Assembly (NCBI GenBank): GCA_035281625.1
Contig: DATEDO010000219.1
Span: 3,952-67,951, forward strand
Source of the DNA: Candidatus Methylomirabilota bacterium
GTDB taxonomy: Bacteria; Methylomirabilota; Methylomirabilia; Rokubacteriales; CSP1-6
Direction of reading: 5' to 3'
DNA length: 64,000 bases
The notes under the pieces are model-generated. The model was not told the origin of the DNA. It was given only the letters and a program-made list of their open reading frames with translations, and did not search any database. A program made the position numbers and the translations under genes. Of the stretch, positions 9,428 to 60,008 are shown piece by piece; within the stretch, counting starts at the first letter, position 1, and each line of letters starts with the position of its first letter.

Positions 9428-11062
9428 TTACTTGTCGAGCCAGACGCTCATGAGGCGCCCGCCGTAGTCGTTGCCGATGTTGGGCGCGAAGTTCTTCACG
9501 TAGGGCTCCCAGGCCGAGATGACCCGGGCGGCCGGACTCACGAAGAACTGGTACACGTTCTGGGCGAAGTGGCGCTGGATGTCGAAGATGATCTCGCGCC
9601 GCTTCTTCTCGTCGAAGGTGCGCCGCTGCAGCAGGATCATCTCGTTGAGCTTGGCATCGTTCACGCCGGCGATGTTCTGCGGCCGCCCGGGCAGGAGGTT
9701 CATCAGGTAGGGGTCGGGCGTGGTGGCTCCGCCGCGCAGGGTGACGATCATCTTCTCGAAGTTCCGGGCCAGACTCGAGGCGATGAACGCATTGCCTTCC
9801 TTCAACTTGAGCTCGGTCTCGATACCCGCGCGCTTCCACTCGCTCAGAATGGCCGCCACGACGTCGGAGAACGCCGTGCCCCAGGTGCCGGTGGACTCCA
9901 CCGGCAGCTTGAGCCCGCTGTGCCCGGCCTGCGCGAGCAGCCGCCGAGCCCCCGCCGGGTCGGCCTCGTAGATCTGCCGGCCTTCCTGGGTGAGCTGACC
10001 GATCGGGATCGCCCACTCGGTGAGGGCCGCGGGCACGAGCGGATTGGCCGCGCCGTGCCCGTAGCCCATGGGGTTCACCTTGATCACCTCGTTGAGGTTC
10101 ACCGCCATGTGCAGGGCGCGGCGGACGCGAACGTCGCGGAAGGGCTCGACCTCGAGCTTCGGGATGGCGAGGGTGGAGATGAGCCACGTGTACTCGGCGG
10201 TCTGGATATTCGGCTTCCGCCGCTTGACGACCTCGAGGTCGGCGCGCTGGAACGTCATGTGGATCTCGGGCGCGAAGTCGTACTGGCCGGAGAGCCAGGC
10301 GGCGAGCTTCGAGGCGGGGTCAGTGTCGACGCGGAACTCGATGCCGTCCGCGTAGGGGAGCCCCGACTGGAAGTAGTTGGGGTTGCGCACGAAGGTGAGG
10401 CGCACGTTGGGCTCGTAGCGCTCCAGCATCCAGGGGCCGGTGCCGATCACCGTCTCCGGCGTCTTGAACATGCCGTCCTTGTCGGCCGCTTCCTTGGGAA
10501 GGATGGGGGCCACCGCCGGGCTCTCCAGGAACCACGCGAACGGCTCCTTCATGGTGAACCGTACGGTGTGGCGGTCGAGCGCCTCCACCTTGTCGATCTC
10601 CTCGAAGGCCGCCCGGTTGGGGTTGCCCTTGACGGTGAGCGCCCGCTGGAACGTGAAGACCACGTCCTCCGCGGTGACCTCGCGCCCGTTCACGGGGGGC
10701 TTCGCGTGGAAGCGCACGCCCTTGCGGAGCTTGAAGATGTAGGTGGTGTCGTTGGGCCGCTCCCAGGACTCGGCCAGATGCGGCTCGATGGGGAGAGTTC
10801 CCGGCTGCACGCTCGGGCCGGCCTTGTGGCGCACCAGCCCGCCATGGGTCAACGACGTGTAGATGAACGTCCACCAGTGCGGCGTCTGATGGGGATCGAA
10901 GTGCGGCGGGTCGAAGCCGGCCAGGCGCAGGACCCCGCCCCGCTTGGGCGTCTGCGCGGCGGCGGGGCCGGGACGCAGGAGGTCGAGCGGGCCCACCGCG
11001 GCGGCGGCGCCCGCGAGCTTCAAGAGTTCGCGGCGGCTGACGGTGCCGGGATCCTGATCCAT
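9428..11062 (-). CDS. ABC transporter substrate-binding protein, family 5 (peptide/nickel/opine type, DppA/OppA-like) with Tat signal
   Basis: 544 aa. The N-terminus is SRRELLKLAGAAAAVGP (twin-arginine). The SBP_bac_5 fold is present. GGGAGGAA lies 5 nt upstream of the ATG at 11062. Confidence 0.85.
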   Translation of the reverse strand: MDQDPGTVSRRELLKLAGAAAAVGPLDLLRPGPAAAQTPKRGGVLRLAGFDPPHFDPHQTPHWWTFIYTSLTHGGLVRHKAGPSVQPGTLPIEPHLAESWERPNDTTYIFKLRKGVRFHAKPPVNGREVTAEDVVFTFQRALTVKGNPNRAAFEEIDKVEALDRHTVRFTMKEPFAWFLESPAVAPILPKEAADKDGMFKTPETVIGTGPWMLERYEPNVRLTFVRNPNYFQSGLPYADGIEFRVDTDPASKLAAWLSGQYDFAPEIHMTFQRADLEVVKRRKPNIQTAEYTWLISTLAIPKLEVEPFRDVRVRRALHMAVNLNEVIKVNPMGYGHGAANPLVPAALTEWAIPIGQLTQEGRQIYEADPAGARRLLAQAGHSGLKLPVESTGTWGTAFSDVVAAILSEWKRAGIETELKLKEGNAFIASSLARNFEKMIVTLRGGATTPDPYLMNLLPGRPQNIAGVNDAKLNEMILLQRRTFDEKKRREIIFDIQRHFAQNVYQFFVSPAARVISAWEPYVKNFAPNIGNDYGGRLMSVWLDK

Positions 11063-11194
11063 GGCGCTTCCTCCCCAGTGAGGATCGATGGCGGTGGATG
11101 GGGCGACCGCCGAACGGGCCCGCGCGATTCGCGCGATGAAGCGGGACGTGCGGGGATCCTAGCGGACGTGAGTGGGGGCGTCAAGCCCGGCGAA

Positions 11195-11281: not shown

Positions 11282-12643
11282 ATGAGCGACTCGGTTCCGG
11301 CTGGACGGTTCAACGCAGGACGCCGCCGGCTGCTCGCCGGCGCGGCGCTGGCAGCCGGCAGTCATCTCGTGCCGCGGCGCGCACGCGCGCAGGGCGCCGC
11401 CCCCTGGGGCGCCCGCCCCGCCGGCAATCCCGCGAACGTCACCTTCGTCGTCTGGCAGTACGGCAACATCTACCAGCAGATCGCCAAGCAATTCGAGGAG
11501 GATTGGGGGGTCAAGGTCAACCAGATCATCGAACCCAATGTCGAGCCGCAGGTGGCCAAGCTCACCGCAATGTACGCGGCGGGCGATCAGGTGGACGTCT
11601 CGCTGTCGCCCATGCAGTACCTGGCCAGCTACATCGACCAGGGCATTGCCACGCCGCTCGACGGGCTGCCTGGGTTGGAGCAGTACGTGAAGGACTTCAC
11701 GCCGTTCACCCGCGCCATCGCCCAGCGCGACGGCAAGACCTGGGGTCTGCCCTACTTCTCGACCTCGTGGGTGTTCATCTACAACGATGAGTTGCTCGCC
11801 AAGGCGGGGTTCAAGGGCAAGCCGTTCAAGAGCTACCCGGAGCTCATCGATCAGGCGCGCAAGGCCAAGCGCGATGGCGTGAGCAAGTACCCGATCCTGT
11901 GGATCGGCGGCGCCGGCTTCGAGCAGCTGCCCGGGACCTGGTTCAGCCTCACCTGCAACCGAGGCGGGGTGATCTTCGACAAGCAGCTGCAGCCGCAGCT
12001 CGGGCCGGGCTCGGTGGCGCGCGAGACGCTGAAGTGGTGGCAGTCGACCTTCAAGGACGAGCTGGCCGACCCGGCCTCGCTCAACGTCCGCTTCATCCCC
12101 GCGGTCAAGGCGTTCAACGCGGGCCAGCACGTCTACCTGGGCACGCTGCACCACTACTACATCAACCTGGTGAACGATGCCGCGCAGTCGCCGCTCGCGG
12201 GCAAGGGGCGCGTGGTCGGTCATCCCGGCGAGGGCAAGACCATCGGCTACACCATGCTCTACATCCTCACCGGGGCCACCAAGCAGCGCGAGTGGGCGTG
12301 GAAGCTCCTCCAGTACCTGGGCGGGCGCACCAAGAACGGGGAGTACACCCAGGCCAACCGCCTGGCCGCCGACGCCATGCTGGGCAGCGGCTACCAGTCG
12401 GTGATGGACAGCGAGCACCTTCGGAAGTCCTGGGCGAAGTGGGCGGACGTCCCCACGCTGCTCGACGTGTGGAAGCGCGCGGTGAACTTCTCGGACGTCG
12501 TGCCCGCGGTCTCGCAGAAGTGGTACCCCCGCTGGAGCGACGCCATCAACGTCGAGCTGACCGCGTGCCTTCAGGGCAAGATCACTGCCGACCAGGCGTG
12601 CGACAACATGGTCGCGGCGGTGGCGAAGGCGAAGCAGGCCTGA
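11282..12643 (+). CDS. Sugar ABC transporter substrate-binding protein (extracellular solute-binding family 1) with Tat signal
   Basis: 453 aa from the ATG at 11282, preceded by GGGAGGAG. The N-terminus is RRRLLAGAALAAGSHLVPRRARAQ. The long ORF-track N-terminal extension (9569..) is antisense to the family-5 binding-protein gene and is rejected. Confidence 0.85.
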   Translation: MSDSVPAGRFNAGRRRLLAGAALAAGSHLVPRRARAQGAAPWGARPAGNPANVTFVVWQYGNIYQQIAKQFEEDWGVKVNQIIEPNVEPQVAKLTAMYAAGDQVDVSLSPMQYLASYIDQGIATPLDGLPGLEQYVKDFTPFTRAIAQRDGKTWGLPYFSTSWVFIYNDELLAKAGFKGKPFKSYPELIDQARKAKRDGVSKYPILWIGGAGFEQLPGTWFSLTCNRGGVIFDKQLQPQLGPGSVARETLKWWQSTFKDELADPASLNVRFIPAVKAFNAGQHVYLGTLHHYYINLVNDAAQSPLAGKGRVVGHPGEGKTIGYTMLYILTGATKQREWAWKLLQYLGGRTKNGEYTQANRLAADAMLGSGYQSVMDSEHLRKSWAKWADVPTLLDVWKRAVNFSDVVPAVSQKWYPRWSDAINVELTACLQGKITADQACDNMVAAVAKAKQA

Positions 12644-14444: not shown

Positions 14445-15484
14445 GCGTGCGCTTTGCCCTCCTCGGCCACGGCTTGTGGGGCGCGCACCACGCCCGGGCC
14501 ATTGCGCGCACGCCCGGCGCCGAGCTGGTGGCCATCGCCGCGCGTACCGAGGCGGCGGCGGCGCGGGCGAGCCATCCCACCGCGGTGGTCGTGGCCGACT
14601 GGCGGGCGTGCATCGCCCGCGCCGACGTCGACGTGGTCGATGTGGTGTTGCCCGATGACATGCATGAAGAGGTGGCGGTGGCCGCGCTGGAAGCGGGCAA
14701 GCACGTGCTGCTGGAGAAGCCCATGGCCACCACGCTGGCGGGCTGCGATCGCATTCTGCGCGCGGCGCGGGCCGCCGGCCGCGTGCTCTGCGTGGGCCAC
14801 GAGCTCCGCTTGTCCAGCCAGTGGGGCGCCATCCGCGGACTGCTCGACGCGGGGCGGCTCGGTCGGCCCCTGCATGTGTTCGTCTCGCTATGGCGCCGCC
14901 CCTACCGCGGGGGGAGCGAGGGCTGGCGCTACGACCGGGCGCGCGTCGGCTCGTGGCTTCTCGAGGAGACCATCCACTATCTCGATCTGGCCCTCTGGTA
15001 CCTGGAGTCGCTGGGACCGCCGGTGGCGGTGGTCGCGGCGGGGAACAGCAAGGGGCGCGAGCCCGGCCTCTACGACAACTTCTCCACGCTGATCCGCTGG
15101 CCCGACGGCGCCCACGCCACCATCAACCAGACGCTCGCCGGCTTCGGCCACCACCAGGCCGTCCACGTGGTGGGGACGGCCGGCTCGGTGCGCGCCACCT
15201 GGTCGGCGAGCATGGACCGCACGCGGCAGGCGACCGCGCTCGTCGAGGTGCTGGAGGGGCTCACCGGCCACGAGCGCTTCGACGTCGGCGAGCCGTCGGT
15301 GCTGCCGCTTGCCGCGCCCTCGGGGGAGCTCTACGAGCTGGAGGCGGAGATCGCGGCCATGGTGGACGCGGTGCGCACCGGGCGGCCGTTCATGCCGCCC
15401 GAGGCGGCTCGGCGGGCGGTGGCCGTGTGCCTGGCCGCGGAGGAGTCGGCGCGGACCGGCCGCGAGATGGCGCTCGCCGTCTGA
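14441..15484 (+). CDS. Gfo/Idh/MocA family NAD(P)-dependent oxidoreductase
   Basis: 347 aa. The ATG at 14441 overlaps the permease stop (ATGA). The N-terminal Rossmann segment is RFALLGHGLWGAHHARAI, with EKP in the catalytic region. Confidence 0.85.
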   Translation: MSVRFALLGHGLWGAHHARAIARTPGAELVAIAARTEAAAARASHPTAVVVADWRACIARADVDVVDVVLPDDMHEEVAVAALEAGKHVLLEKPMATTLAGCDRILRAARAAGRVLCVGHELRLSSQWGAIRGLLDAGRLGRPLHVFVSLWRRPYRGGSEGWRYDRARVGSWLLEETIHYLDLALWYLESLGPPVAVVAAGNSKGREPGLYDNFSTLIRWPDGAHATINQTLAGFGHHQAVHVVGTAGSVRATWSASMDRTRQATALVEVLEGLTGHERFDVGEPSVLPLAAPSGELYELEAEIAAMVDAVRTGRPFMPPEAARRAVAVCLAAEESARTGREMALAV

Positions 15485-15616
15485 GCCGCCGCACGCCGGC
15501 CCTACACAGGCATCCCGCCCGGGCGGCGACAGCCTCAAGAGGGCGCGGCCCCGGCGTCTCGACCGGGTCGGCAACCGGGAGCTCGGCCAGCTTACGCCGG
15601 CCGGCGGGCGTGACGG

Positions 15617-18600
15617 TCAGCGCCCGGTCAGGCTCGGGGGGACGAGCGGCCGGTGCTGCACGTCCGGGGACTGTCCGGGCCAGAGCTGGAAGCCGGTCCA
15701 TCGCCAGTCCCGGAAGCGATTCACGTAGAGGCGGCCGGCCGGATCGATGCCGGCGGCGAGCAGCTCCGCGGGCCCGATGGCCACCATGCCCGCGATCACC
15801 ACGAGCGGGCCTGGCGGCGTGTCCACTTGCCACTCGAGCGGCCCGATCTCCCCGTCCCGGAGCGCGCGAAGGATACGCGCCGGCGGCGGGCTCGACGAGG
15901 TCGCCGAGACCAGGCGTCGATCGCCGGTGGTGAGCACGACGAGGCGCGTCGGGCCGAGCGCGCTCAGCGTGATCACATCGTACGCGTTGCCTCCGATCGG
16001 GGCGAAGCCTGGGGGAGCTACCCCGAGCGGACGGAGGCGCCCCGGAAGATCGCTCGGCGCCACGTGGCGATGATACATGCGTCCCTGCGCCTCGTCGGCC
16101 ACGACGAGATCGACATTGCCATCCCCCCAGCTGGACGCCGCGAGCGACCCGAAGACGGTGGCGCGCACGGGGAAATCGCTCGGCAAGAGCACGCCGGCCG
16201 ACCACTGCGCATCCGCGAAGCGCCAGCGGTGCACGCGCTGATCGCTCAGTACCGCGAAGAGCTCGAGGCGCCCCGCGCCGACGCCGATCAAGGCCGGCGC
16301 CGAGAGCGCATTGTTCGCTCCGGGAATCGCGGAAGGCCCACTCCACTGGCCCTGGCGATAGCGCCAGTGCCTGAGCGAGCGATCGCTGCCCATCGCGACC
16401 AGCTCGAGCTGATCGCCGACGGCAACGGCGACGGGACGAGCGGCGGCGGCGATCCCCGGCCGCGGGTCCACCGCCACGTCGATGGGCAGGGCGCCGTCGA
16501 GATAGCGGAGATGCCGCAGCCGGTCATCGGCGCCCACGTAGACCACGTCCACGACACCCGGTCCGGTGGCGATGGCGGTCGGCTCGGCGAGGTAGCCCGG
16601 CACCGCGACGGCGCGACCGCCGGTGAAGCGCGCCGGGATCCCGTCGCCGAGATGCGCCCGCTGGAGCCCGGCATCCGCCCCGACCACGACGAGGTCGCCG
16701 TGACGATCCGTGACGGCCAGCGCGGGCAAGCCCACCATGTCCGGCCACCCCGACCGCTCCCAGCCGCGCCAGTGCACCGCTGCCCACGGCCATCGCCCCC
16801 AGCGCGCGGCGCGATAACTGTTGTGCCACATCGGCCGCGCGGCGGACGCCGGAGTATCCCAGGCCTTGGCCATGAGATGCACCTGGCCATCCCGTGTCAC
16901 GGCCGCCGCGACCCCGCCCGCCACGCGGGGCGCCGGAACTATGCCAGAGCGCTCGAGCGGCAGGCCGACCGCGCTCCAGCCCTGCCACCCTGGGGCCCAG
17001 TTGCGCCCGTCGTTGCCGCCGGCGGCCCACGTGAAGTGATTGTGCCGGAGTCTCCGATCGCTCCCGGTGACGAGCAGCTCGAGCCGCCGGTAGCCTGAGC
17101 AGGCCAGCGTGGGGTCGCCCGCGCCGGCGAGCCCGGTCAGCGTCGTCGACGGCGACCACGACACCCCGGAGCTCCCCACGTTTGGCCGAAAGACGTCGAT
17201 TCCCGCCCAAAGCGGTTGATGCACCAGTGTGCCGTCGGTCCGCCGATAGGCCACGTCCACCCGTCCGTCACCGCAGGCGGCCGCCGAGGGGGCGCCGGCC
17301 AGGGTGGCGCCCGGGATGTTGAAGGCCGAGCCCCAGAGGCCGGTCTCGAGGTCGAAGGCCATCACGACGAGGCGCGAAGCCTGGTCGGCGAAGATCAGCA
17401 CGAGCTTGTTGGCCGCCTGCACCAGGATCGGATCGCGAAACGGCGGCGCGGCAACGACGCGCGGGGCCGCGAGCGCGCTCGCGGCCTGCCAGGCGCCGTC
17501 GAGGCGCCGCACGTGATGGAGCCGCCCGTCCACCGAGCGCAGGACGACCTCGAGCTGGCCCGCGGCCGTGGTGACCGCGGCCGGCCGGTGCGCGTCGAAG
17601 GTGACGCCCGGGGGCGAGGCCGGCGTCGCCACCTGGCTCCACGCGCCGCCGCGCAACGTCGCGTGCAGCAGCCGGCCGCTCGTGCTGACCGCGAGGGCGT
17701 CGAGTCGATCACCGCCTGCGCTCAGGAGCGCGGGGTCCCCCGCCATCGCCTGGTCGAGCGGGACCGAAGCGAAGGTGCCGCCGCCTCCGGACTCGCGGCG
17801 CCCGTGGTAGAGGCGGCCCCCGCCGCCTCGCACCGCGACGTGCAGCGTGGGCTCGGGGACTTCGGGGCGCGCCAGATACGTGGACCGAAGCCGCGGCGGC
17901 GGCGGGGCGGTCACGGCGAACTGCATCACATCGGCTCGTCCGCCGCCGTCGAAGTCGCCGGCCAGCACGACCATGTCGGCCGACGTGTCCCAGCGGGCCC
18001 ATTGTCGCGTCGAGAAGCCGGTCCCCGTCGAGGCGCCCACCCAGAGGCCGTACTCCGCCGTCCCGCTGAGGGGCACGTCGAACTTCATGACGTCGGTCTT
18101 GCCGTCGCCGGTGAAGTCGCCCGCGAGTACCTTCATCTCTCGATAGGTGTCCCAGCGCGCCCACTCGGTGGTGGTGAAGCGGCCCCCGTCGGAGAGGCCG
18201 ACCCAGAGGCCGAGCTGCGCCACGCCGCCGGAGGGCACGTCGAATTTCATGACGTCGGTCTTGCCGTCGCCGTTGAAGTCCCCGGTGAGCACCTTCATCT
18301 CGTGATAGGTGTCCCAGGTCGCCCACGGGGCGGCGGCGAACTGGAAGCTCGCCCCGTCGGACAGCCCCACCCGCAGGCCCGAGGCCCGCACGCCGCTCAG
18401 CGGCACCTCGATGGTGAGCACGTCCGTCTTGCCATCGCCGTTGAAGTCGCCCACCACGACCTGCCACGCCTGGGGGACGATGGCCGCCGACCATCGGCTG
18501 AAATGGAACGCGCGGCCGTCGGAGAGGCCCACCCAGATCCCCGACATGTACTGGTCCCTGATCAGCACATCGGTCTTCCCGTCGCCGTTGAAATCGCCGG

Positions 18601-19654
18601 TGTGGAGAACCATCCTCGGCGAGGTCGTCCACGTAGCCCAGCGCGAGAAGGCGAGCTGCTGCCCATCGGAGAGACCGACCATGAGCCCGGCGGGCCGGCG
18701 GGCGGTCGGGGCGACATCGAGCTTCAGCACGTCGGCCTTGCCGTCACCGTTGAAGTCGCCCGCGTAGACGCGCGCCTCACCATCGGTGTCCAGCCGACCC
18801 CACTCGGCGCCGCTGAAGGACCGCGTGCCGCCTCGCCCCATGGGCCCGCGGGACAGCCCCACCTGGAAGGCGCCCGAGGCCGGCTCCGGCACGAATCCCA
18901 GGCGCGGCACGGCGAACCGGCTGTACGAGAGCGTGCGCGTGACGTCCACGGGGGCGGACAGCGGGCCGGCAAGTCGCTGTACCGCGGTGTCCACCACCTC
19001 GCGCCGCGCGTTGCCGGAGAGCGAGATGCCGACCGGAGTGGGCTGGGCGCGCAGCCGGACCTGGCTGCCTTGCGCGTGCGGCGTCCCGAACGCCAGGGAT
19101 CCGCCGACCTGATAGTCGCTGATGGTGAGGGTGACGTCGTATCGTTCGTTGGCCTCGGGGACGAAGATCCGGCCGCTCACGCTCGCCCGCACGCTCAGGC
19201 CGAAGTAGACGATCTGATTGCCAGGATCGAAGGTGAAGCGGGGCGCGCCGCGCAGCTCGACGCGAGCCTGAGTGAGGCGCTCCAACCGCGCGTCGAGACC
19301 CTGCACCAGGGAAGCGATCTCGGGCCCGATCCAGGTGTTCAGCTCGCGCTCCGCCTCGGCGCCCGCCCGCTCCATCATCTCGGGCGTGAAGCGGAAGGCG
19401 CCGCGCTGCCGGAAGACGTCGCGCAGATTGCTCGAGACGATGCGGTTGCTGGCGTCGAACGTGATGACGATCACCGCTCCGTGCCAGGGTGCGAGCGTGT
19501 CGTTCGCGCCCTCGGCGGTGCCGAGCTGACGGGTATACGTCGCGACGTCGTAGTCGGTCAGGAAGAACGCCGGAGAGCAACCGCCCAGCGTGACGGCGGC
19601 GAGGGCCATCGCCGCGAGTGCCTGTCCAAGACGGCGCCGCCGTCGCCGGCTCAT
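15617..19654 (-). CDS. Giant secreted lipoprotein (1345 aa): N-terminal unknown domain, six FG-GAP/VCBS-type repeats, then a second ~10-unit propeller-like repeat module
   Basis: The signal peptide with lipobox is MSRRRRRRLGQALAAMALAAVTLGGC. GDFNGDGK(A/T)DV occurs five times and GDFDGGGRADV once (FG-GAP calcium-binding consensus). The C-terminal 740 aa contain repeated R-L-(R/Y/H)-H-x-R-(Y/F)-x-x-G-x-W-(S/T) units. The ATG at 19652-19654 overlaps the stop of the upstream gene. Confidence 0.8.
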   Translation of the reverse strand: MSRRRRRRLGQALAAMALAAVTLGGCSPAFFLTDYDVATYTRQLGTAEGANDTLAPWHGAVIVITFDASNRIVSSNLRDVFRQRGAFRFTPEMMERAGAEAERELNTWIGPEIASLVQGLDARLERLTQARVELRGAPRFTFDPGNQIVYFGLSVRASVSGRIFVPEANERYDVTLTISDYQVGGSLAFGTPHAQGSQVRLRAQPTPVGISLSGNARREVVDTAVQRLAGPLSAPVDVTRTLSYSRFAVPRLGFVPEPASGAFQVGLSRGPMGRGGTRSFSGAEWGRLDTDGEARVYAGDFNGDGKADVLKLDVAPTARRPAGLMVGLSDGQQLAFSRWATWTTSPRMVLHTGDFNGDGKTDVLIRDQYMSGIWVGLSDGRAFHFSRWSAAIVPQAWQVVVGDFNGDGKTDVLTIEVPLSGVRASGLRVGLSDGASFQFAAAPWATWDTYHEMKVLTGDFNGDGKTDVMKFDVPSGGVAQLGLWVGLSDGGRFTTTEWARWDTYREMKVLAGDFTGDGKTDVMKFDVPLSGTAEYGLWVGASTGTGFSTRQWARWDTSADMVVLAGDFDGGGRADVMQFAVTAPPPPRLRSTYLARPEVPEPTLHVAVRGGGGRLYHGRRESGGGGTFASVPLDQAMAGDPALLSAGGDRLDALAVSTSGRLLHATLRGGAWSQVATPASPPGVTFDAHRPAAVTTAAGQLEVVLRSVDGRLHHVRRLDGAWQAASALAAPRVVAAPPFRDPILVQAANKLVLIFADQASRLVVMAFDLETGLWGSAFNIPGATLAGAPSAAACGDGRVDVAYRRTDGTLVHQPLWAGIDVFRPNVGSSGVSWSPSTTLTGLAGAGDPTLACSGYRRLELLVTGSDRRLRHNHFTWAAGGNDGRNWAPGWQGWSAVGLPLERSGIVPAPRVAGGVAAAVTRDGQVHLMAKAWDTPASAARPMWHNSYRAARWGRWPWAAVHWRGWERSGWPDMVGLPALAVTDRHGDLVVVGADAGLQRAHLGDGIPARFTGGRAVAVPGYLAEPTAIATGPGVVDVVYVGADDRLRHLRYLDGALPIDVAVDPRPGIAAAARPVAVAVGDQLELVAMGSDRSLRHWRYRQGQWSGPSAIPGANNALSAPALIGVGAGRLELFAVLSDQRVHRWRFADAQWSAGVLLPSDFPVRATVFGSLAASSWGDGNVDLVVADEAQGRMYHRHVAPSDLPGRLRPLGVAPPGFAPIGGNAYDVITLSALGPTRLVVLTTGDRRLVSATSSSPPPARILRALRDGEIGPLEWQVDTPPGPLVVIAGMVAIGPAELLAAGIDPAGRLYVNRFRDWRWTGFQLWPGQSPDVQHRPLVPPSLTGR
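17914..18772 (-). repeat. Six tandem FG-GAP repeat-coding units (~50-55 codons each) inside the giant lipoprotein gene
   Basis: The protein-level repeats GDFNGDGKxDV...VGLSDG...F...W..W are spaced about 53 aa apart. The nucleotide-level periodicity follows from them. Confidence 0.7.
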
Positions 19655-20745
19655 GGCGCCGGCACCAGGGTGAACTCGATCCAGACCTGCTCGCCGGCGG
19701 AGGGCAGCGGGAAGCCGTCCTCCGCGCTGAACACGACGCGCCAGGTGAGCGTCGCGCCCGCTTGCGGCTCATCCGAGCGGTAGTTGGGCGTCACGAACAC
19801 GAGGTTGTGGTTCGGCCGGCAGAGCGACGCCCGATTGTTGGCCGGATCGGGGCCGAGATCGACAGCGCCGTCGGGGGCACTGGCCTCGCCGTGACAGTCC
19901 TGGACCGGCACGCCCTGGCTCCGGACCCGCACGTACTGGGGCGCGATCACCCGCTGCAGGGTGAAGGCGGGATCCATCAGGAGATCCCCCCCGCATTCGT
20001 CCCCCCGACCCTCCATCGGGGGGACGGCGCACGTTCCGACCAGCACGCGCACCTTGCTGACATGCAGCCGGGGGTCGAAGGCCTCCTTCACGGTCGTGGA
20101 GTCGCGGATTCCGCTCCAGAGCCATTCGTCGGAGGCAGCCCCGGGCTGCATGAGGCGAGGAGGCAGCGTGAACTTGCTCGACAGCACGTTGAACCGCACC
20201 GAGGTCCCCGGCTGGCTTGGTACCGGGGGCAGGTCGGGGTACGAGACGTGGGCCAGATAGTCGCCGGTTTCCGACGGCGCGAAGGTCGGAGGGTCGGAGG
20301 TCCCCGCGCAGCCGCTGGAGATGCTGAACCGGGCATCCTCGACCAGCATGTCGGAGTCGATTCGTCGGTGATTCACGGTGACCGACGTTGCGGTTGGGAC
20401 GGTGAACCGGCCGGTCGGGCAGCGGTCCTGCGGCAGACAGAAGTTGCAAGACTGACCGAACCGGATCTCGGGCCAGGTGACGGAGACCGGCGGGGCGGGG
20501 GCGACCCAGTACCGAACCCGCGCGGGAAGGCTCGCCCGGTCGTCGACGAAAGCCGGGACGAAGGTGGCGTCGGTCAGATGCACGCTGCCCGGCGCGAAGT
20601 CGAGCGGCGTCTGCGAAACGCAGGCGATCTGCGAGAGCAGAAGCAGGATGGCGCCGAGCCCGACGACGGCTTCGACCGCGAGGATGCCGCGCGACCGCGC
20701 CGGGGATCCGAGCGCGGCGCGTATGCGCGCGACAGCTGCGATCAT
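19651..20745 (-). CDS. Hypothetical secreted/membrane-anchored Cys-rich protein (364 aa)
   Basis: The ATG at 20743-20745 overlaps the lgt stop (ATGA). An N-terminal hydrophobic segment (ILAVEAVVGLGAILLLLSQIAC) precedes 10 Cys in the mature part. No recognizable family. The ORF-track N-terminal 204 codons overlap lgt out of frame and are Arg-rich, so they are rejected. Confidence 0.6.
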   Translation of the reverse strand: MIAAVARIRAALGSPARSRGILAVEAVVGLGAILLLLSQIACVSQTPLDFAPGSVHLTDATFVPAFVDDRASLPARVRYWVAPAPPVSVTWPEIRFGQSCNFCLPQDRCPTGRFTVPTATSVTVNHRRIDSDMLVEDARFSISSGCAGTSDPPTFAPSETGDYLAHVSYPDLPPVPSQPGTSVRFNVLSSKFTLPPRLMQPGAASDEWLWSGIRDSTTVKEAFDPRLHVSKVRVLVGTCAVPPMEGRGDECGGDLLMDPAFTLQRVIAPQYVRVRSQGVPVQDCHGEASAPDGAVDLGPDPANNRASLCRPNHNLVFVTPNYRSDEPQAGATLTWRVVFSAEDGFPLPSAGEQVWIEFTLVPAP

Positions 20746-21569
20746 GCGGCGGCCGCCCGCATCCGCAGCGCGCGACGGCGTCGCGCGGCCAGTCCGCCGA
20801 GTCCGATGAGGCCCAGGGCGGCGCCGATGAGCTGCGCTTCGGTGAGCCCGAACGCGATCGGGGGGTTGAGCCGGAGAAACTCGATACCGAAGCGCGCCGC
20901 GCTCGAGAGCACGAGATAGAGGCAGAAGACGCTGCCCTCCGGGTGCGATCTCCGGGCCCACAGAAGGAGCGCCGCGCAGATGAGGCCGGCGAGGAGGAAC
21001 TCGTATACCGGCGTGGGGTGGCAGGGCGTGTCGTCCGGCACCACGCCGTTGGGGAAGCTCGCCACGAGCTCGGGCAGCCCTGCGAACGCCCGCGAGGGCG
21101 GTACGAGACCGCCGTCGTATCGCGTTCCCCACGGCAGGTCGGTGGGCCGTCCGTAGTCGCCGTCGCCGGCCAGGTGGCAGCCGAGGCGGCCGATGCCATA
21201 GGCCAGCACGAGCGCGGGAGCGCCCGCGTCGGCGATGCGCGCCACCGGAAGCCCCCGAAGCCGCAGGTAGAGGAAGATCGCGGCCATCGCCGCGAGCAGC
21301 CCCCCGTACCAGGTCATGGTGTCGCGCCAGGCGCCGGCCCATGCGAGCAGGGACCACGCGCGACCCTCGTCGGCAAGGCTCAGCGCCTTGGATCCGGCCA
21401 CACCGAAAAGGATGGCGAGGGCCGTGATATCCCGGGCGACCCTCGCGTCCAAGGACCTTTGCCGTAGCTCGTAGGTCAGAAGCGCCGCGCCCACGACGAA
21501 GGCGGCGAGCAGCATGAGTCCATAGCCGTAGACGGGGACCTGCCCGATGTGGAAAAGCACCGGCGCCAT
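20742..21569 (-). CDS. lgt: Prolipoprotein diacylglyceryl transferase
   Basis: 275 aa. Lgt signature segments include GRLGCHLAGDGDYGRPTDLPWG, HPTPVYEFLLAGL and YLVLSSAARFGIEFLR. It has multiple TM helices. Confidence 0.85.
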   Translation of the reverse strand: MAPVLFHIGQVPVYGYGLMLLAAFVVGAALLTYELRQRSLDARVARDITALAILFGVAGSKALSLADEGRAWSLLAWAGAWRDTMTWYGGLLAAMAAIFLYLRLRGLPVARIADAGAPALVLAYGIGRLGCHLAGDGDYGRPTDLPWGTRYDGGLVPPSRAFAGLPELVASFPNGVVPDDTPCHPTPVYEFLLAGLICAALLLWARRSHPEGSVFCLYLVLSSAARFGIEFLRLNPPIAFGLTEAQLIGAALGLIGLGGLAARRRRALRMRAAAA

Positions 21570-21637
21570 CTCGGCGGGGAATATCTCACCGATGGCGGCT
21601 CAACGCCAGCGCGATGCGGGGAACTATTGAGCGCCGG

Positions 21638-23431
21638 CTACCAGGCCAGGGCGTACGTGGGGCGCCGCGGGTCCGCGCCGGCGGCCAGTACGCCGGTGGC
21701 GGGATCCCGCTGCGTCACCACCGCGCCGATGCCGCAGGCGCCCATCTCGATCACGCGGTGGCCGAGGGCGGCGAGCGCCTCGCGCGTGGCCGCGGGAATG
21801 CCCGGCTCCACGTTCAGCACGCCGGGCTTGTAGGCGCGCGGGTAGAACGAGTTGGTGAGCGTCTGGGTGGAGAAGCGCGGCGCTTCCACCGCCTGCTGCG
21901 GGTTCATCCCGAAGACGAGCAGGTTCAGCACGATCTGGAGATCGGCCTGCGCCTGATCGTCGCCGCCGGGGCAGCCCACCGTGGTCGTGGGCACGCCGTT
22001 CTCGGCGATGAGGTAGCTCACCAGGGTCGTGCGCGGGCGCTTGCCGGGGGCGAGCGCGTTGGGATGCCCCTCCTCGAGCACGAACATCTCGCTCCTCGTG
22101 CTCAGTGTGCAGCCGAGCTCGGGAGAGAACGCCGATTTCCGGAACACGCCCCCGCTCGGGGTGAGCGCCACCATGCTGCCGTCGCGGTCGATGGCCGCGA
22201 TGTGAGTGGTGCCGTCGGGGATGGGCGCGGTGGCGTCCGCGCGGGGCGTGGCGGCCGCGCGAGCCCGGGCGGCGCAATCGGGCCAGAGATCGCCCGGCGC
22301 GGGCGCCTCGGGCGCGGCGCGGTCCATGCGGATCAGCGCGGCGCGCTCCCTCGCGTAGGCGGGCGCCAGGAGCTCGGCCATGGGCACCGCGGCGTGCTCG
22401 GGATCACCGTAGTAGCGCTCGCGATCGGCGAAGGCGAGCTTGAGCGCCTCCGCCACCACGTGGATGTAGGCGGGGGTGTTGTGTCCCAGCGCGCGGAGGT
22501 CCACGTCCGCGAGCATGGTGAGCGCCTGCATGAGCACCGGCCCCTGGGTCCAGGGGCCCTGACCGAGAATCTCCCGTCCCGCGAAGCTCACGCGAAGCGG
22601 GGCCTCCAGCCGCGCGCGATAGCCGGCGAGGTCGGACGCGCGCAGCAGGCCGCCGAGCCGGGCCGAGAAGGCGCCGATGGTCTCGGCCACGTCGCCCTGA
22701 TAGAAGCGCCCCCGCGCGGCGGCGATCTCGGCGGCCCGATGATCGGTTGCCGGTTGTTCCGGCCCGGCGAGTCGGCGAAGCGTCGCGGCGAGGGCGGGCT
22801 GGGAGACGAGCGCGCCCAGCGGCGGCACGCGACCGCCGGGATAGAACACGTCGTGGCCGCCCGGCGGGTAGCGATCGAACTGCTGGCGCGACTCGGGAAT
22901 GGCCAGCATGCGGTGCATGTAGTCGTACATGGGGAAGCCGCGCTCGGCGTACTCGAGCGCCGGCGCCAGCACGTCGCTGACCGAGCGCGTCCCGTGCCGC
23001 TCCAGCAGGGTGAGAAAGGCGTCCACCGCGCCCGGCACCGTGAACGAGAGATGCGCGTCGGCGCCCGGTCCGGTGGGGATGCGGTCGAGGCCCCGGCCGC
23101 GGAAGAACGGGATGGTCGCGAGCGCGGGGGCCGTGCCCTGGCCGCTCAGGGCCAGCGTCTCGCCGCGGCGGGCGTCGTGGATCATGGCCACGCACTCGCC
23201 GCAGAGCGTGTAGGACGCGGTCGGCTCCACCACCGCGGCAGCGAGGCCGGCGGCGGCGGCGGCGTCGAAGGCGTTGCCCCCGGCGATGAGCATGCGCATG
23301 CCCGCCATCGCGACGAGGGGATGGCCCGCGCTGACCACACCCTGCGTGCCCGACACGACGGGCCGGGTGGTGGCGCGCTCCGCGGTGTGGTGCTCCATCT
23401 CGTGAACTCGAGGGCCGGGAGTCGTGGTCAT
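21638..23431 (-). CDS. ggt: Gamma-glutamyltransferase family protein
   Basis: 597 aa. Ntn-hydrolase GGT motifs include GGNAFDAAAAAGLAAAVVEP and a T-rich catalytic region (PDGTTHIAAIDRDGSMVALTPS). AGGAGG lies 12 nt upstream of the ATG at 23431. Confidence 0.85.
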   Translation of the reverse strand: MTTTPGPRVHEMEHHTAERATTRPVVSGTQGVVSAGHPLVAMAGMRMLIAGGNAFDAAAAAGLAAAVVEPTASYTLCGECVAMIHDARRGETLALSGQGTAPALATIPFFRGRGLDRIPTGPGADAHLSFTVPGAVDAFLTLLERHGTRSVSDVLAPALEYAERGFPMYDYMHRMLAIPESRQQFDRYPPGGHDVFYPGGRVPPLGALVSQPALAATLRRLAGPEQPATDHRAAEIAAARGRFYQGDVAETIGAFSARLGGLLRASDLAGYRARLEAPLRVSFAGREILGQGPWTQGPVLMQALTMLADVDLRALGHNTPAYIHVVAEALKLAFADRERYYGDPEHAAVPMAELLAPAYARERAALIRMDRAAPEAPAPGDLWPDCAARARAAATPRADATAPIPDGTTHIAAIDRDGSMVALTPSGGVFRKSAFSPELGCTLSTRSEMFVLEEGHPNALAPGKRPRTTLVSYLIAENGVPTTTVGCPGGDDQAQADLQIVLNLLVFGMNPQQAVEAPRFSTQTLTNSFYPRAYKPGVLNVEPGIPAATREALAALGHRVIEMGACGIGAVVTQRDPATGVLAAGADPRRPTYALAW

Positions 23432-23731
23432 TCGGGCAGGCGCCTCCTCGCGCGTCCCTCGATCGTAACACCGCCGGCCTTGACAGGGGCGGGCCGCCCG
23501 CGTACAAGGGACGGCACCATGTGGTGCCGTTTCAAGCGCGCCCAGAAGAGCCGGCTGGGGTCCCGAAAGGCGGGACGCCCAGCGACGGCGGTGGCGCGCG
23601 CCAGAGGAGAGTGCAGTCGAACGCCCTAGTCAGGCTGGCTGACTGATCCTTCTCGAATCCCTGAGGCCCGTGGCCACCCGGTCGCGGGCCTCTTTGCGTT
23701 TCACCATCCTACAGCCATGGAGAAGAGCGTC

Positions 23732-24619
23732 ATGACAGACATCTCGGGAATCTGGCTGCCCATCATCACCCCGTTCCGCGACGGTGCGGTGGACCTTACG
23801 AGCTACGAGCGGTTGCTCGAGCACTATCTCGACCGCGGGGTGGCGGGGATATTCCCGCTCGGCACCACCGGCGAGAGCCCCACCCTTGACGAGGACGAGA
23901 TGGAGGCCCTGGTCGATCGCACCGTGACCGTGGTCGCGGGCCGCGTGCCGGTCTTCGTGGGCATCGGCGGCAACGCCACCGCCAGGGTGGTGAAGGCGGT
24001 GGAGCGCCTCGAGCGTTATCGCTTCGAGGGGATCGTCTCGGTGTGCCCGTACTACAACCGCCCCGGTCAGGACGGTCTCCACGCCCACTTCACGCGCATC
24101 GCGGAGGCCACCGCGCGCGAGATCCTCATCTACAACATTCCGTACCGCACCAGTGTGAACCTCCTGAACGACACGCTCCTGCGCCTGGCCGAGCTGCCGA
24201 ACATCGTGGGCGTGAAGGATTCCAGCGGCAATCTCGCGCAGTCGCTGGAGCTGCTGCGCCGGCGCCCGCGGGGCTTCGCGGTCATGACCGGCGACGACGG
24301 CCAGCTCTACACCACGATGGCGCACGGCGGCGACGGCGGCATCCTGGCCTCGGCCCACCTCGACACCGAACACTTTATCGCGGTGTATCAACGCATGATC
24401 GCGAACGACCATCGCGGTGCCCGCGCGGAATGGGCGCGGCTGGAAGCGCTGGTCTCGCTTCTCTTCAAGGAAGCCAATCCGATGCCGATCAAGCATTGCC
24501 TCTGGCGCCGGGGTCTCATCGCCTCGCCGGAGTGCCGCCTGCCGCTCACCCGCGTGTCCCCCGAGCTGGCGGAGGCGCTCGACGGGCTCGTGCCCGCGGT
24601 CGGGGTTCAGGCGGCCTGA
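23732..24619 (+). CDS. Dihydrodipicolinate synthase/N-acetylneuraminate lyase family (class I aldolase, DapA-like)
   Basis: The Schiff-base lysine is in GVKDSSG, with a GTTGE motif. The start is chosen at the ATG at 23732 (MTDISGIWLPIITPF), which has GGAGAAG upstream. The alternative ATG at 23717 lacks an RBS. Confidence 0.8.
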   Translation: MTDISGIWLPIITPFRDGAVDLTSYERLLEHYLDRGVAGIFPLGTTGESPTLDEDEMEALVDRTVTVVAGRVPVFVGIGGNATARVVKAVERLERYRFEGIVSVCPYYNRPGQDGLHAHFTRIAEATAREILIYNIPYRTSVNLLNDTLLRLAELPNIVGVKDSSGNLAQSLELLRRRPRGFAVMTGDDGQLYTTMAHGGDGGILASAHLDTEHFIAVYQRMIANDHRGARAEWARLEALVSLLFKEANPMPIKHCLWRRGLIASPECRLPLTRVSPELAEALDGLVPAVGVQAA

Positions 24620-27648: not shown

Positions 27649-29007
27649 ATGATGCCTCTCGCCATGACCGCCCGCGTGCTGTCGCTCGCGCTGGCCTGTC
27701 TGCTCGTCGCTCCTGTCGGCGCGGGCGCGCAGGCCTTCTTCACCGCGACGCCCAGCCCCAACCTCCGCATCGCGCCCCTGACCATTCGCGCCGCGGTCAC
27801 GCCCGCGGAGGGTCCGGTGTCGATGCGCGTGCAGTTCGGCGTGATGGCGCCGGCCGGCGCCACCGTGCCCGATCTCTACCTGCTCTGGCCCGGCGAGGTG
27901 AAGGGTGATCCCTCGCTCGGCGCCCGCCAGCCCGAGCTCGCCGAGCAGGTGACGGCGCTGCGCTACGAGGTGATCGACGAGGGGCGCCTGCCCCTTCGCT
28001 CGCGCAATCTGACCGCGGGCGCCGGCCCCGGCGCCCGCGAAGTCGTGCCGGGCGGCGCGCCCTACGTGACGTTCGTCCAGACCGGCGGGACGTCGGGTCT
28101 GAGCGCACCCGCTACCTGGATCCGGATCCCCTCCACGTCGCGCCTCGCGGATCCGGACTGGATCACCACGCTGGAGATTCCCAGCCTTTCCGCGGTGCGG
28201 GCCAAGCGTCCCACCTGGCTCGAACGCCTCGTGCTCGGCGAGCGCCACCTCTTCACCATGAGCTTCTACGAGGTGCGAGGCCGGCCTCTCCGCCGCATCT
28301 ATCTCACCCATCGCGACCGCCTCGTTCGCCTGGGCGACGCGCCCGCAGAGATGGTGGTGACCTTCAGCGAGTCGGATCACCTGAAGATCGACAGCGTGGC
28401 CCCGGCCACCGCGGTGCGCGGGGTGAGCGAGACCGCGGAGAGCACGGAGACGGTCACGCTGTACCTCGAGACCGGCGAGGGCATCACGCCACAGCGGCTG
28501 AGCGTGCAGTATGGCTACTTCTCCCGCACTCAGGCCATCGCGGTGGTGGCGATCCCGCTCGTCCTCCTGCTCCTGGGCTACGCGATCGGGCCGCTGGTGG
28601 GGCGCGTGTCGCTACACGTCGCTCAGCGGCTGGCCGGGCGCTTCCACCTCTCGCGCTGGGACGGCCTGCCGCGCGAGCGCAAGGCCGGCGTCGTCCTCTC
28701 GCGCGACGTGCTGGCGCGGATCCGGCCCGGCGAAACCACGCAGGACGAGGTGCTTCGCCTGTGCGGGCCCAATGTCGAGGTCCTCGAGCACATCCCCTCG
28801 GACGGCCACCGCACGCTCGTCTATCGCGGCCGGCACGTCCGCCCGCAGACCCGCCGCCTCATCGGCATGCTCGCCGCCGTGCGCCACCTCGAGGTGGAGC
28901 AGCACGAGGTGAGCATCGAGCTCGCCGACGGGGTGGTGCGGGACGTCAAGGCCGATATCCGGCGCTCGCGCGTCGCCGTCGGGGACGGTGACGGCGCACC
29001 CGTGTGA
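27649..29007 (+). CDS. Hypothetical exported protein with C-proximal TM helix (452 aa)
   Basis: The signal peptide is MMPLAMTARVLSLALACLLVAPVGAGAQA. One internal TM helix (AIAVVAIPLVLLLLGYAIGPLV) is followed by a ~150-aa basic C-terminal domain. No family is recognized. Confidence 0.55.
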   Translation: MMPLAMTARVLSLALACLLVAPVGAGAQAFFTATPSPNLRIAPLTIRAAVTPAEGPVSMRVQFGVMAPAGATVPDLYLLWPGEVKGDPSLGARQPELAEQVTALRYEVIDEGRLPLRSRNLTAGAGPGAREVVPGGAPYVTFVQTGGTSGLSAPATWIRIPSTSRLADPDWITTLEIPSLSAVRAKRPTWLERLVLGERHLFTMSFYEVRGRPLRRIYLTHRDRLVRLGDAPAEMVVTFSESDHLKIDSVAPATAVRGVSETAESTETVTLYLETGEGITPQRLSVQYGYFSRTQAIAVVAIPLVLLLLGYAIGPLVGRVSLHVAQRLAGRFHLSRWDGLPRERKAGVVLSRDVLARIRPGETTQDEVLRLCGPNVEVLEHIPSDGHRTLVYRGRHVRPQTRRLIGMLAAVRHLEVEQHEVSIELADGVVRDVKADIRRSRVAVGDGDGAPV

Positions 29008-43172: not shown

Positions 43173-44573
43173 CTACTGCGCGCGGCTCTGCTGGTCCTGC
43201 CAGCCGCCGCCGAGCGCCCGGTAGAGGCGCACCACCGCCTGCATCTCGCTGAGCTGTATGCGCACGAGCCCCAGCTCCGCGTCGAACTGCTGGCGCTCGG
43301 AATCGAGCACCTCGAGATAGGGGCTGACGCCGTTGGTATAGCGGAGGTTGGCGAGGCGGGTGGTGTCGATGGCCGCCACCACCAGCGCTTCTTGCTGGAG
43401 GCGGGACTCCCGCTGCTTCTTGTACTCCACGAGCGAGTCGGAGACGTCGCGGAACGCCCCGATGACGACCTGCTGGTACTGGAGCAGGGCCTCGTCCGCG
43501 CGGGCGTAGGCGGCGTCCACCCCCGCCCCGACGCGGCCGGCCGTGAAGATCGGGAGCGTGAACGAAGGCAACACCGAGAAGATGCCCTGCGGACCGAACA
43601 TCTGCCCGTTGACCATGAGCCCGCCCGCCTGCACCGCGCCGGACAGGAACACGCGCGGGAAGTAATCGGACTTCGCCACGCCGATGCGGGCCGTCGCCGC
43701 GGCCAGCACCTGCTCGGCCTGCTGGACGTCGGGGCGCCGCTCGAGCAGTCGCGCGGGAACGCCCGCCGGCAGCGCGGTGGCCGCGACCTGCTGCCCGAGA
43801 TCACGACCCCGCGGCACGGGGGCAGGCGCCCGGCCCAGCAGGATGCTGATGAGGTTCTCGGTCTGCTCGATCTGCCGCTCGATGTCGGGAACGGTCTGGG
43901 CGGCTCCCGCGACCAGGATCTCGGACTGCCGCACGTCGATCAGGCCCGCCACCCCGCCTTCCTCGCGGACCCGGACCAGCCGGAGCGACTGGGTCCGCGA
44001 GTCGAGGGTGCGGCGCGCGATCTCCAGCTGCACGTCGAGCGCGCGCAGCGAGAAGTAGGCCGAGCCGAGGTCCGAGATGAGCGTGGTGATGACCAGGCGA
44101 CGGCCGTACTCGGTGGCGAGGAGCTCCGCGCGCGCGGCCTCGGTGCCGCGGCGGAACCGGCCCCAGAAGTCGAGCTCGAATCCGAAGTCGAGGCCGCCCG
44201 CGGGCGCGAAGGTCTCGCGCGCCTGCAGGGGGGAGAGATCGCCCTCCACCCGCTGATACGGCGCGCTGCCGATGCCCCGCACCTCGGGGAACTGGAAGGA
44301 GCGGGCGATGGTGACCTGGGCGCGCGCGTCGAGGATGCGCGCCGCCGCCACCCGCACGTCGTAGTTCGCGGCCAGCCCTTCGCGGATGAGGCCCTGGAGG
44401 GTCTCGTCGGCATAGACCTGCCACCAGCCGAGATCGCCCAGCGAGGGCTCCGACGGGGGCGCGAGGGCGCCGCGGAAGTCCGGCGGCGTGTCCACGGCCG
44501 GGCGCGTGTAGTCGGGGCCCAGGGTGCAGGCCGCGAGCAGGAGGGCGGGGGCGACGAGCGCGAATCGTCTCAT
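43173..44573 (-). CDS. RND efflux system outer-membrane factor lipoprotein (NodT/OprM family)
   Basis: 466 aa from the ATG at 44571-44573. The lipobox is in MRRFALVAPALLLAACT. The start overlaps the RND pump stop (ATGA). The ORF-track upstream extension is a read-through frame. Confidence 0.85.
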   Translation of the reverse strand: MRRFALVAPALLLAACTLGPDYTRPAVDTPPDFRGALAPPSEPSLGDLGWWQVYADETLQGLIREGLAANYDVRVAAARILDARAQVTIARSFQFPEVRGIGSAPYQRVEGDLSPLQARETFAPAGGLDFGFELDFWGRFRRGTEAARAELLATEYGRRLVITTLISDLGSAYFSLRALDVQLEIARRTLDSRTQSLRLVRVREEGGVAGLIDVRQSEILVAGAAQTVPDIERQIEQTENLISILLGRAPAPVPRGRDLGQQVAATALPAGVPARLLERRPDVQQAEQVLAAATARIGVAKSDYFPRVFLSGAVQAGGLMVNGQMFGPQGIFSVLPSFTLPIFTAGRVGAGVDAAYARADEALLQYQQVVIGAFRDVSDSLVEYKKQRESRLQQEALVVAAIDTTRLANLRYTNGVSPYLEVLDSERQQFDAELGLVRIQLSEMQAVVRLYRALGGGWQDQQSRAQ

Positions 44574-53781: not shown

Positions 53782-53869
53782 GCGGCGTCTCCGGGCCCCA
53801 TGCTGTCGCGATTCATCGGCCGATCATACGTCCGACCCCCGTCTTTCCTGTCACCTATTGGATCAGAGG

Positions 53870-55480: not shown

Positions 55481-55512
55481 GGTGTTCTCCTGAGTGGCGT
55501 GATGGCTCGTCG

Positions 55513-59974: not shown

Positions 59975-60008
59975 GGCTAGATAACCTCCCCGGCTTCCCA
60001 ACACGAGA

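Follow-up and report, generated by a model that had tools for sequence, protein, structure and literature searches.

Genetic linkage of a divergent Lgt-family enzyme of a Methylomirabilota bacterium with a putative lipoprotein family carrying a variant lipobox, and fusion of the two in relatives

Prolipoprotein diacylglyceryl transferase (Lgt) has been treated as one general enzyme with one loose lipobox. The locus described here raises the question of which proteins such an enzyme serves when its gene is tightly packed with genes for particular surface proteins. In a 64,000-nt stretch of the Candidatus Methylomirabilota contig DATEDO010000219.1 (the whole stretch analysed, with a G+C content of 70%, is hereafter called the window) three minus-strand genes follow one another, encoding an Lgt-family enzyme, a Cys-rich protein (the middle protein) and a giant lipoprotein (Table 1). 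We give even odds to the reading that this enzyme acts as an accessory Lgt reserved for the middle protein encoded beside it, itself presumably a lipoprotein whose lipobox departs from the canonical form; in this reading the giant would probably be served as well. The original prediction that the three genes are joined by ATGA stop/start overlaps was borne out by the coordinates of the open reading frames (ORFs) and by the sequence at both junctions. All three ORFs display the codon-position G+C of coding DNA, with values of 0.87-0.89 at third codon positions (GC3). Since at least five further same-strand gene pairs in the window also share a 4-nt overlap, the ATGA junctions of the trio represent ordinary operon packing and no more.

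The gene order recurs in relatives. Among Lgts of the high-GC subclade situated on long enough contigs, a middle-protein homolog is always encoded downstream of lgt or fused to it, and in most loci a gene for a giant homolog follows. A gamma-glutamyltransferase (GGT) gene lies upstream of the module in the window and in loci L001/L005, L002 and L015, and in L022 a pseudopilin gene is located between GGT and lgt. On the contigs of L013 and L014, which are too short to reveal the upstream side, the middle gene comes after lgt, and L020/L021 show the trio on short contigs. In L008/L009 the upstream genes are TauE, MetE and ECH, and Lgt, middle protein and the 1412-aa giant are 61%, 32% and 51% identical to their counterparts in the window. 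In L018 the module adjoins upstream rve transposases and an SNase nuclease gene. Thus, the synteny proposed earlier as a check was found in different neighbourhoods and is not unique to one strain. The lgt/middle junction has the 4-nt ATGA overlap in L015 and L022 as well, an 11-nt gap in L001/L002 and a 13-nt overlap in L008; the 4-nt overlap of the middle and giant genes is also present in L001, L002, L003, L008, L020 and L022.

Variations of this order point to the closest partner of the enzyme. L019 (2247-4900) encodes an Lgt 70% identical to that of the window, interrupted by an in-frame TAA at 2899-2901; the next gene codes for a divergent middle homolog of 603 aa, and no giant gene is present. 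Conversely, L003/L004 share the flanks of L008 (ECH 80% identical) and carry an amidohydrolase gene in the lgt slot, followed by middle and giant genes. Since Lgt occurs with a middle homolog without the giant in the former, and middle and giant occur without Lgt in the latter, the Cys-rich middle protein is the closest partner of Lgt. The original prediction had tied lgt to the giant; recurrence and gene fusions uphold a functional link with the downstream genes, but the tightest partner is the middle protein. In L012 (378-1906) two tandem middle genes follow lgt, and both products have the N-terminal helix and QI[AG]C.

Some further features of these loci were recorded. The L019 middle homolog possesses an additional C-terminal domain. 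In L003 (5749-11216) identity to the L008 middle protein drops to only 29%, and the giant is devoid of the FG-GAP block; the L003/L008 module either diverges far faster than its flanks or was replaced as a cassette. Positions 259456-280529 of CAWFDO010000020.1 (L005/L001) have the same order as the window, ABM-NIPSNAP-DHDPS-GGT-Lgt-middle, with 77-83% protein identity. This record is titled 'uncultured Actinomycetes bacterium MFD02360.bin.2.285', and its taxonomic label or the contig looks wrong. The actinobacterial origin that the title suggests was rejected, as NCBI assigns HKZ07994.1, which matches the window GGT exactly, and HKZ07993.1, which is near-identical to the window Lgt, to Methylomirabilota, and as outer-membrane components are encoded in the window.

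The strongest form of linkage is gene fusion. Three hits of the middle-protein profile, P0138 (696 aa), P0141 (709 aa) and P0153 (662 aa), combine Lgt and middle protein in a single ORF, in the order complete Lgt, basic linker, extra hydrophobic helix, a QIAC, EIGC or QIGC motif, and middle domains. Pairwise identities of 37-49% over the full length indicate that this is a conserved architecture and not a gene-calling accident. L018 matches P0141 with 99-99.8% identity, yet a frameshift interrupts it at the Lgt/middle junction. Literature searches retrieved no description of an Lgt-substrate fusion.

The middle protein had been described as a 364-aa protein with 10 Cys and no recognizable family. 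Neither Pfam nor NCBIfam yielded a match, in agreement with the latter statement, whereas recounting gave nine Cys, all of which are conserved. The family is rare, with 10 clusters among 5.8 billion proteins and 51 representatives among 1.84 billion (profile search). The AlphaFold2 (AF2) model (pLDDT 78.9, pTM 0.76) consists of an N-terminal helix (residues 19-41) and subsequent all-beta domains, and fold searches with this model matched only FN3/Ig/Fab-like sandwiches. The residues R17, E25, L30, L36, L37, Q39 and I40 of the helix region are conserved (alignment A1). Compared to GGT (83-86% identity to the window protein) and Lgt (76-80%) in L001, L015 and L022, the middle protein (45-73%) evolves faster. 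Such rapid divergence would be in keeping with exposure at the cell surface.

At the end of the membrane helix lies the lipobox-like motif QIAC. The pattern [Q/E]-[I/F]-[A/G]-C is present in every Lgt-linked or Lgt-fused member of the middle family, and position -3 is polar in all of these, being Q, or E in L018/P0141. The lipobox consensus has been given as [LVI][ASTVI][GAS]C (quoted in PMC4728403), and QIAC falls outside both this consensus and the PROSITE-type pattern at position -3. In about 30 remote homologs, the residue aligned with Cys42 is the Cys of a canonical lipobox (for example LAAC, LSGC, VSGC or LGGC) that belongs to a short signal peptide. Given this alignment, we read Cys42 as the lipidation Cys; by this homology the middle family is probably a lipoprotein family, and the middle protein probably functions as a lipoprotein by means of a variant signal. 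From these comparisons we infer lipid transfer to Cys42 and an altered lipobox specificity of the cognate enzyme.

The enzyme itself is a divergent member of its family. Pfam LGT matched the 275-aa protein with 155.7 bits (cut-off 24.9) over profile positions 1-237 of 240, and HMMER aligned its residues 3-240 with positions 14-253 of the E. coli Lgt chain 5azb at 24% identity (E 6e-13). The score of 83.7 with TIGR00544 remained below the cut-off of 118.9 and hence below equivalog level, and the best NCBIfam model, NF000778, reached 106.4 against a cut-off of 334. The original assignment of the gene as lgt therefore stands with regard to the family, but the enzyme is not a canonical member of it. 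HKZ07993.1 from a Methylomirabilota bacterium, a near-identical protein of the same 90% cluster, is annotated at NCBI as prolipoprotein diacylglyceryl transferase. A crude hydropathy scan of the window Lgt indicated about 6-7 hydrophobic segments, and the protein ends in a basic tail (ARRRRALRMR).

In E. coli numbering, the window Lgt keeps Y26, D129, R143, G154, H196, R239, E243 and R246 and carries the substitutions H103 to Y, N146 to C, E151 to D and Y235 to S; R143, R239, E243, R246, G154, H196 and Y26 are retained throughout the divergent clade. Y26, H103, R143, N146, G154 and R239 were found to be absolutely required in E. coli Lgt (2026 study, PMC13251419), and four of these six (Y26, R143, G154 and R239) are kept in the window enzyme, H103 and N146 being the two replaced. 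The same work reports that H103 is naturally Y, W or F in Lgts of some species, that N146C/E151D is found in distant Lgts, and that the N146C Lgt of L. interrogans partially complements E. coli (PMC13251419). As the catalytic arginines are kept and N146C and H103Y are known in natural Lgts, the window Lgt is probably active with the usual diacylglyceryl-transfer chemistry.

Among the matches listed, 17 clusters (P0011-P0027) reach 60% identity or more to the window Lgt, followed by low-GC proteins of the Bacteroidota/Ignavibacteria type. A neighbour-joining tree divides the module Lgts into an unfused and a fused group next to the low-GC group, and both module groups were placed together in 44 of 100 bootstrap replicates. 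The Bacteroidota/Ignavibacteria-type relatives lack the module and occur in a housekeeping-looking context: in low-GC loci (L006, L010, L016, at about position 6001) lgt is preceded by a PTS-EIIA gene and an unannotated 137-144-aa ORF and followed by a SpoU methylase gene, sometimes with a Glrx-like gene between lgt and the latter, and this order is conserved.

Several lines of evidence suggest that the module Lgt is probably not the housekeeping Lgt of the cell but a divergent accessory copy. This status is deduced from the distribution of the enzyme, which matches that of the module, from the lesions or absences at L019, L018 and L003, from the fusion to one substrate in three lineages, and from the number of only 17 clusters with at least 60% identity among the matches listed, though the phylum is abundant in soil data. 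Judged by these matches, the Lgts of most other Methylomirabilota must be more distant from the window Lgt. The canonical lipoboxes of other proteins of the window and the precedent of second lgt copies likewise speak for a dedicated enzyme. A second canonical lgt would support a dedicated enzyme, which is the opposite of the meaning that the original prediction had attached to such a copy.

A number of points weigh against a dedicated accessory enzyme. L003/L004 preserve a Q-F-G-C motif without an adjacent lgt. The correlation of a polar position -3 with Lgt linkage is one-sided, since it is based on the contexts of Lgt-linked members. The catalytic substitutions are common to the Bacteroidota/Ignavibacteria-type relatives in housekeeping contexts, none being specific to the module, and errors of assembly might account for the L019 stop codon and the L018 frameshift. 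The conserved helix of the middle protein, with a conserved Glu within the membrane segment, could be a permanent anchor instead of a cleaved signal peptide. Finally, the six-frame ORFs of the entire window were queried with a profile hidden Markov model (HMM) of the Lgt alignment, including E. coli Lgt, and by phmmer with E. coli Lgt; the region searched, which comprised the window and 10 kb beyond its 3' end, yielded no second lgt, and the accessory status is thus indirect.

This last result is also what would be expected if the gene encoded the sole housekeeping Lgt of the lineage, serving all lipoproteins, with a lineage-specific pair of surface-protein genes placed downstream in the same operon. 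The plain naming of the gene by NCBI, the intact key arginines and the PTS-EIIA / small ORF / Lgt / SpoU methylase context of the clade relatives agree with such a role. Moreover, other lipoproteins of the window need an Lgt; canonical lipoboxes were identified in an OEP protein (43173-44573, LLAAC), an MFP protein (47738-49168, TTAAC) and an NMT1-type protein (51037-52566, ALGC). However, the trio moves as a unit among unrelated neighbourhoods, in one case next to transposases, and an essential enzyme of general function would hardly be expected to become fused to a single substrate in three lineages. Nor is a sole essential copy easily reconciled with L003/L004, which have no lgt at the syntenic place, with the stop codon in the L019 gene, or with the series of matches, in which no other high-GC relatives precede the cross-phylum hits. 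We consider a sole housekeeping role unlikely. Solute-binding proteins encoded at 9428-11158, 11282-12643 and 339-1526 have signal peptides without a lipobox Cys, two of them Tat-like.

If the enzyme is dedicated to the middle protein, the following course of events can be proposed. One message would serve all three proteins, with translation of the middle and giant genes coupled, as suggested by the overlaps. Outer-membrane components encoded in the window, namely an OEP/AcrB/HlyD efflux pump and an OprD-type porin, imply that the Methylomirabilota host is diderm. The N-terminal helix of the middle protein would reside in the inner membrane and present the Cys of [Q/E]-I-[A/G]-C at its periplasmic face, where the co-encoded Lgt would move diacylglycerol from phosphatidylglycerol to this residue. 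A general Lgt would be expected to perform poorly on this motif because position -3 is polar. The giant, with its canonical LGGC, may be lipidated by either the module Lgt or the general one. The Ig-like middle protein and the propeller-bearing giant might then jointly constitute a membrane-anchored complex for glycan binding or adhesion.

The fused relatives suggest a further step. Lgt is said to have a seven-helix topology with a cytoplasmic C-terminus, as reportedly described by Pailler et al. in 2012. With seven helices and a basic tail, the C-terminus of the window Lgt should be cytoplasmic. The eighth helix of the fusions would accordingly return the chain to the periplasm, positioning the Cys at the membrane face and adjoining the seventh transmembrane helix (TM7). 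TM7 borders the cleft proposed as lateral peptide entry site of Lgt (PMC4728403). The substrate helix, as eighth helix directly after TM7, might then be modified in cis, and signal peptidase II could subsequently split the enzyme from its product. That Lgt co-evolved with a lipoprotein of non-canonical lipobox to the point where a natural fusion lipidates its own eighth helix in cis and is cleaved by signal peptidase II is a tentative proposal, which we hold possible though less than probable.

The same topology lends itself to another interpretation, according to which the middle protein remains in the membrane as a permanent partner or specificity subunit of Lgt, with its conserved helix docked on the enzyme; its Cys would be structural or regulatory, and the giant would be the real substrate. 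A fusion would hold the helix beside TM7 permanently, the helix is unusually well conserved for a signal peptide at the seven positions named above, and the giant has a proper lipobox and a strongly conserved mature N-terminus. On the other hand, in the remote middle homologs, which are ordinary lipoproteins, the Cys of the lipobox falls at the position of Cys42, L019 has Lgt and a middle homolog without a giant, L012 has two middle copies, and nine conserved Cys are an odd number that leaves one unpaired. A permanent-partner function hence appears rather improbable. That the linkage has no enzymatic meaning at all, the genes being passengers of one mobile island and the Lgt redundant with that of the host ('bring your own Lgt' or a decaying duplicate), is very unlikely, since despite the transposases adjoining L018, the pseudogene-like lesions in L019 and L018 and the faster divergence of the L003/L008 module relative to its flanks (ECH 80%, middle protein 29%), Lgt has stayed well conserved (59-80% identity) across loci where the middle protein has drifted to 32-50%, the fused ORF has been kept in three lineages at 37-49% identity, and the polar lipobox residue at -3 is invariant in linked members.

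The putative second client of a dedicated Lgt, the giant, begins with MSRRRRRRLGQALAAMALAAVTLGG-C26, comprising a basic n-region, a hydrophobic stretch and the lipobox with its Cys (TLGG-C26). It fits the PROSITE-type pattern, with the G at -2 lying outside the narrow consensus; together with the invariance of G24, G25 and C26 this sustains the classical lipobox predicted before. C26 is followed by the conserved stretch SPAF[FY]LTDxDVATYT (alignment A4). A Tat signal in the run RRRRRR was considered and rejected, as L003, L008 and L018 do not conserve the pair of arginines. The N-terminal domain matched no Pfam or NCBIfam family; its structural model is weak (pLDDT 56.8), and a faint resemblance to a TULIP-type lipid-binding fold is a hint only. 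In L001 (11071-13974) the giant gene ends after the N-domain (280 aa, P0181) and is followed by ParA/ParB and then GT87/PMT-type genes. This short form reflects either a truncation or a chimeric join, and the G+C profile favours neither.

The remainder of the giant is built of propeller repeats. Its FG-GAP region scored 91.8 bits with Pfam FG-GAP and 86 bits with FG-GAP_3, and this block is missing in the giants of L003, L018 and L020 and is thus optional. A profile (A3) of the blade region matched PLL2 (6rfz, 1e-18), PHL (5mxe, 1.8e-15) and PLL (5c9o, 1.8e-14) in the PDB, and the blade repeat has a conserved aromatic/Trp position. The single sequence of this region gave no Pfam match; PF26607 Beta-prop_PLL is precomputed on the L002 and L018 homologs. 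Fourteen blades probably form two seven-bladed propellers, and with the FG-GAP repeats the giant would have about three. The double propeller originally predicted is accordingly correct as to propeller repeats but probably not as to the number of propellers, since six FG-GAP motifs and 14 PLL-type blades suggest roughly three. The adhesin- or lectin-like character ascribed to the giant is a reasonable suggestion, as its C-terminal half matches PLL-family lectins with E = 1e-18; a lectin or adhesin role would follow from this family resemblance.

Table 1. Features of the lgt-middle-giant locus in the window and of its relatives (aa, amino acids; positions are those of the window).
Feature	Position	Strand	Basis or remark
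Lgt-family enzyme (275 aa)	20742..21569	-	ORF, Pfam LGT
Signature motif of the divergent Lgt clade			GRLGCHLAGDGDYG; nearly invariant; clade extends to Bacteroidota/Ignavibacteria-type contigs at ~50% identity
ATGA overlap, lgt stop / middle-gene start	20742..20745	-	read from sequence
Middle protein (364 aa, 9 Cys)	19651..20745	-	ORF; N-terminal membrane helix and QIAC, tandem Ig/FN3-like beta-sandwich domains
Lipobox-like motif Q39-I40-A41-C42 at the end of the middle-protein membrane helix	20620..20631	-	Q39 and C42 invariant in alignment A1
ATGA overlap, middle-gene stop / giant-gene start	19651..19654	-	read from sequence
Giant lipoprotein (1345 aa)	15617..19654	-	ORF, GC3 0.89
Lipobox L23-G24-G25-C26 of the giant	19577..19588	-	G24, G25 and C26 invariant in alignment A4
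N-terminal domain of the giant, residues 27 to ~285	18800..19576	-	only three detectable homologs
FG-GAP repeat region of the giant, residues ~286-590	17885..18799	-	six GDFxGxGxxDV Ca-type motifs at residues 299-576
Fourteen PLL-lectin-type beta-propeller blades, residues 603-1326	15677..17848	-	13 by iterated blade HMM, 1 by eye (residues 737-780)
Loci with Lgt and middle homolog			window, L001, L002, L013, L014, L015, L022, L008/9, L020/21, L019

As to the surroundings of the trio, the GGT gene lies 68 bp upstream of lgt on the same strand and could belong to a common transcript. Downstream, genes for a sugar ABC transporter and an oxidoreductase converge with the end of the giant gene. A scan of positions 15300-23900 for promoters and terminators detected no feature within or directly after the trio, an Rfam scan of 15000-24000 no RNA family, and a tRNA scan of the window no tRNA gene. 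Elsewhere in the window, positions 52570-61340 encode a 934-aa Orn/Lys/Arg decarboxylase, two Asp-Al_Ex permeases, an aminotransferase, a glutamate symporter and an OprD-type porin, which looks like an amino-acid decarboxylation/exchange system. Two further well-coded genes, at 27649-29007 (452 aa, with signal peptide) and 61474-62658 (394 aa), belong to no Pfam family.

If the proposed dedication is true, the enzyme would be without precedent among Lgts in having a private substrate and an altered lipobox specificity, and a paralog with its own variant-lipobox family would show that lipobox specificity can be divided between Lgt copies. Binding of the peptide substrate by Lgt has remained obscure, as the crystal structures lack an acceptor peptide (PMC4728403). 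The fusions P0138, P0141 and P0153 would offer a ready-made construct for structural trapping of an enzyme-lipobox complex. There are also consequences for annotation, since the middle protein would escape lipoprotein predictors and the automatic naming of such a gene as ordinary lgt could mask the real housekeeping gene in these genomes. What the giant does in this uncultured phylum, abundant in soil, is a matter of more limited interest.

In E. coli, lgt stands alone as a housekeeping gene in the lgt-thyA arrangement. E. coli Lgt (5AZB/5AZC, PF01790) and the window enzyme share the family, the predicted fold and the expected transfer from phosphatidylglycerol to the lipobox Cys; the window enzyme differs from it by an identity of 24%, by four substitutions and by a subclade linked or fused to one protein family. 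A closer parallel is provided by second lgt genes, such as M. smegmatis MSMEG_5408, S. coelicolor Lgt1/Lgt2 and the plasmid lgt of the B. cereus group, where an extra Lgt-family gene exists beside the general one. About 1,300 of roughly 13,000 genomes (~10%) have two lgt copies, plasmid copies co-occur with lipoproteins of type IV secretion systems (T4SS), and MSMEG_5408 has N146C (PMC13251419). The earlier statement that lgt is not usually found beside specific substrate lipoproteins was therefore overstated, the two-copy genomes and the plasmid/T4SS cases limiting its reach (PMC13251419). Compared to these second lgts, the module described here has a tighter linkage (operon and fusions), a non-canonical lipobox and a diderm Methylomirabilota host, its status as a paralog being the probable rather than the demonstrated one.

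For the giant, the nearest known proteins are the PLL/PHL lectins of Photorhabdus, to which its 14 C-terminal blades match by profile (1e-18 to 1e-12). Lectins of the PLL family consist of seven blades, between which L-fucose and O-methylated sugars are bound (PMC6943638). Unlike these soluble proteins of ~370 aa with one propeller, the giant would have two such propellers within a 1345-aa lipoprotein, in addition to the N-domain and the FG-GAP repeats.

Dedicated enzyme/substrate pairs are known as pilus-specific sortases and pilins, exosortase and PEP-CTERM proteins, rhombosortase and GlyGly-CTERM proteins, and SecA2-SecY2 and serine-rich adhesins. The logic of these pairs is the same, a paralog of a general enzyme being encoded beside its surface protein with a variant sorting signal, and the chemistry is another. 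Literature searches found no report of a dedicated-substrate pairing for Lgt, nor a description of this gene combination as a surface module, in line with the novelty that the original prediction had claimed for it. Altogether, a specialised Lgt beside lipoprotein genes is a variant of a known theme; what is new is the linkage, at the level of both operon and gene fusion, to one rare protein family, the variant lipobox of this family, and the PLL-type giant as partner.

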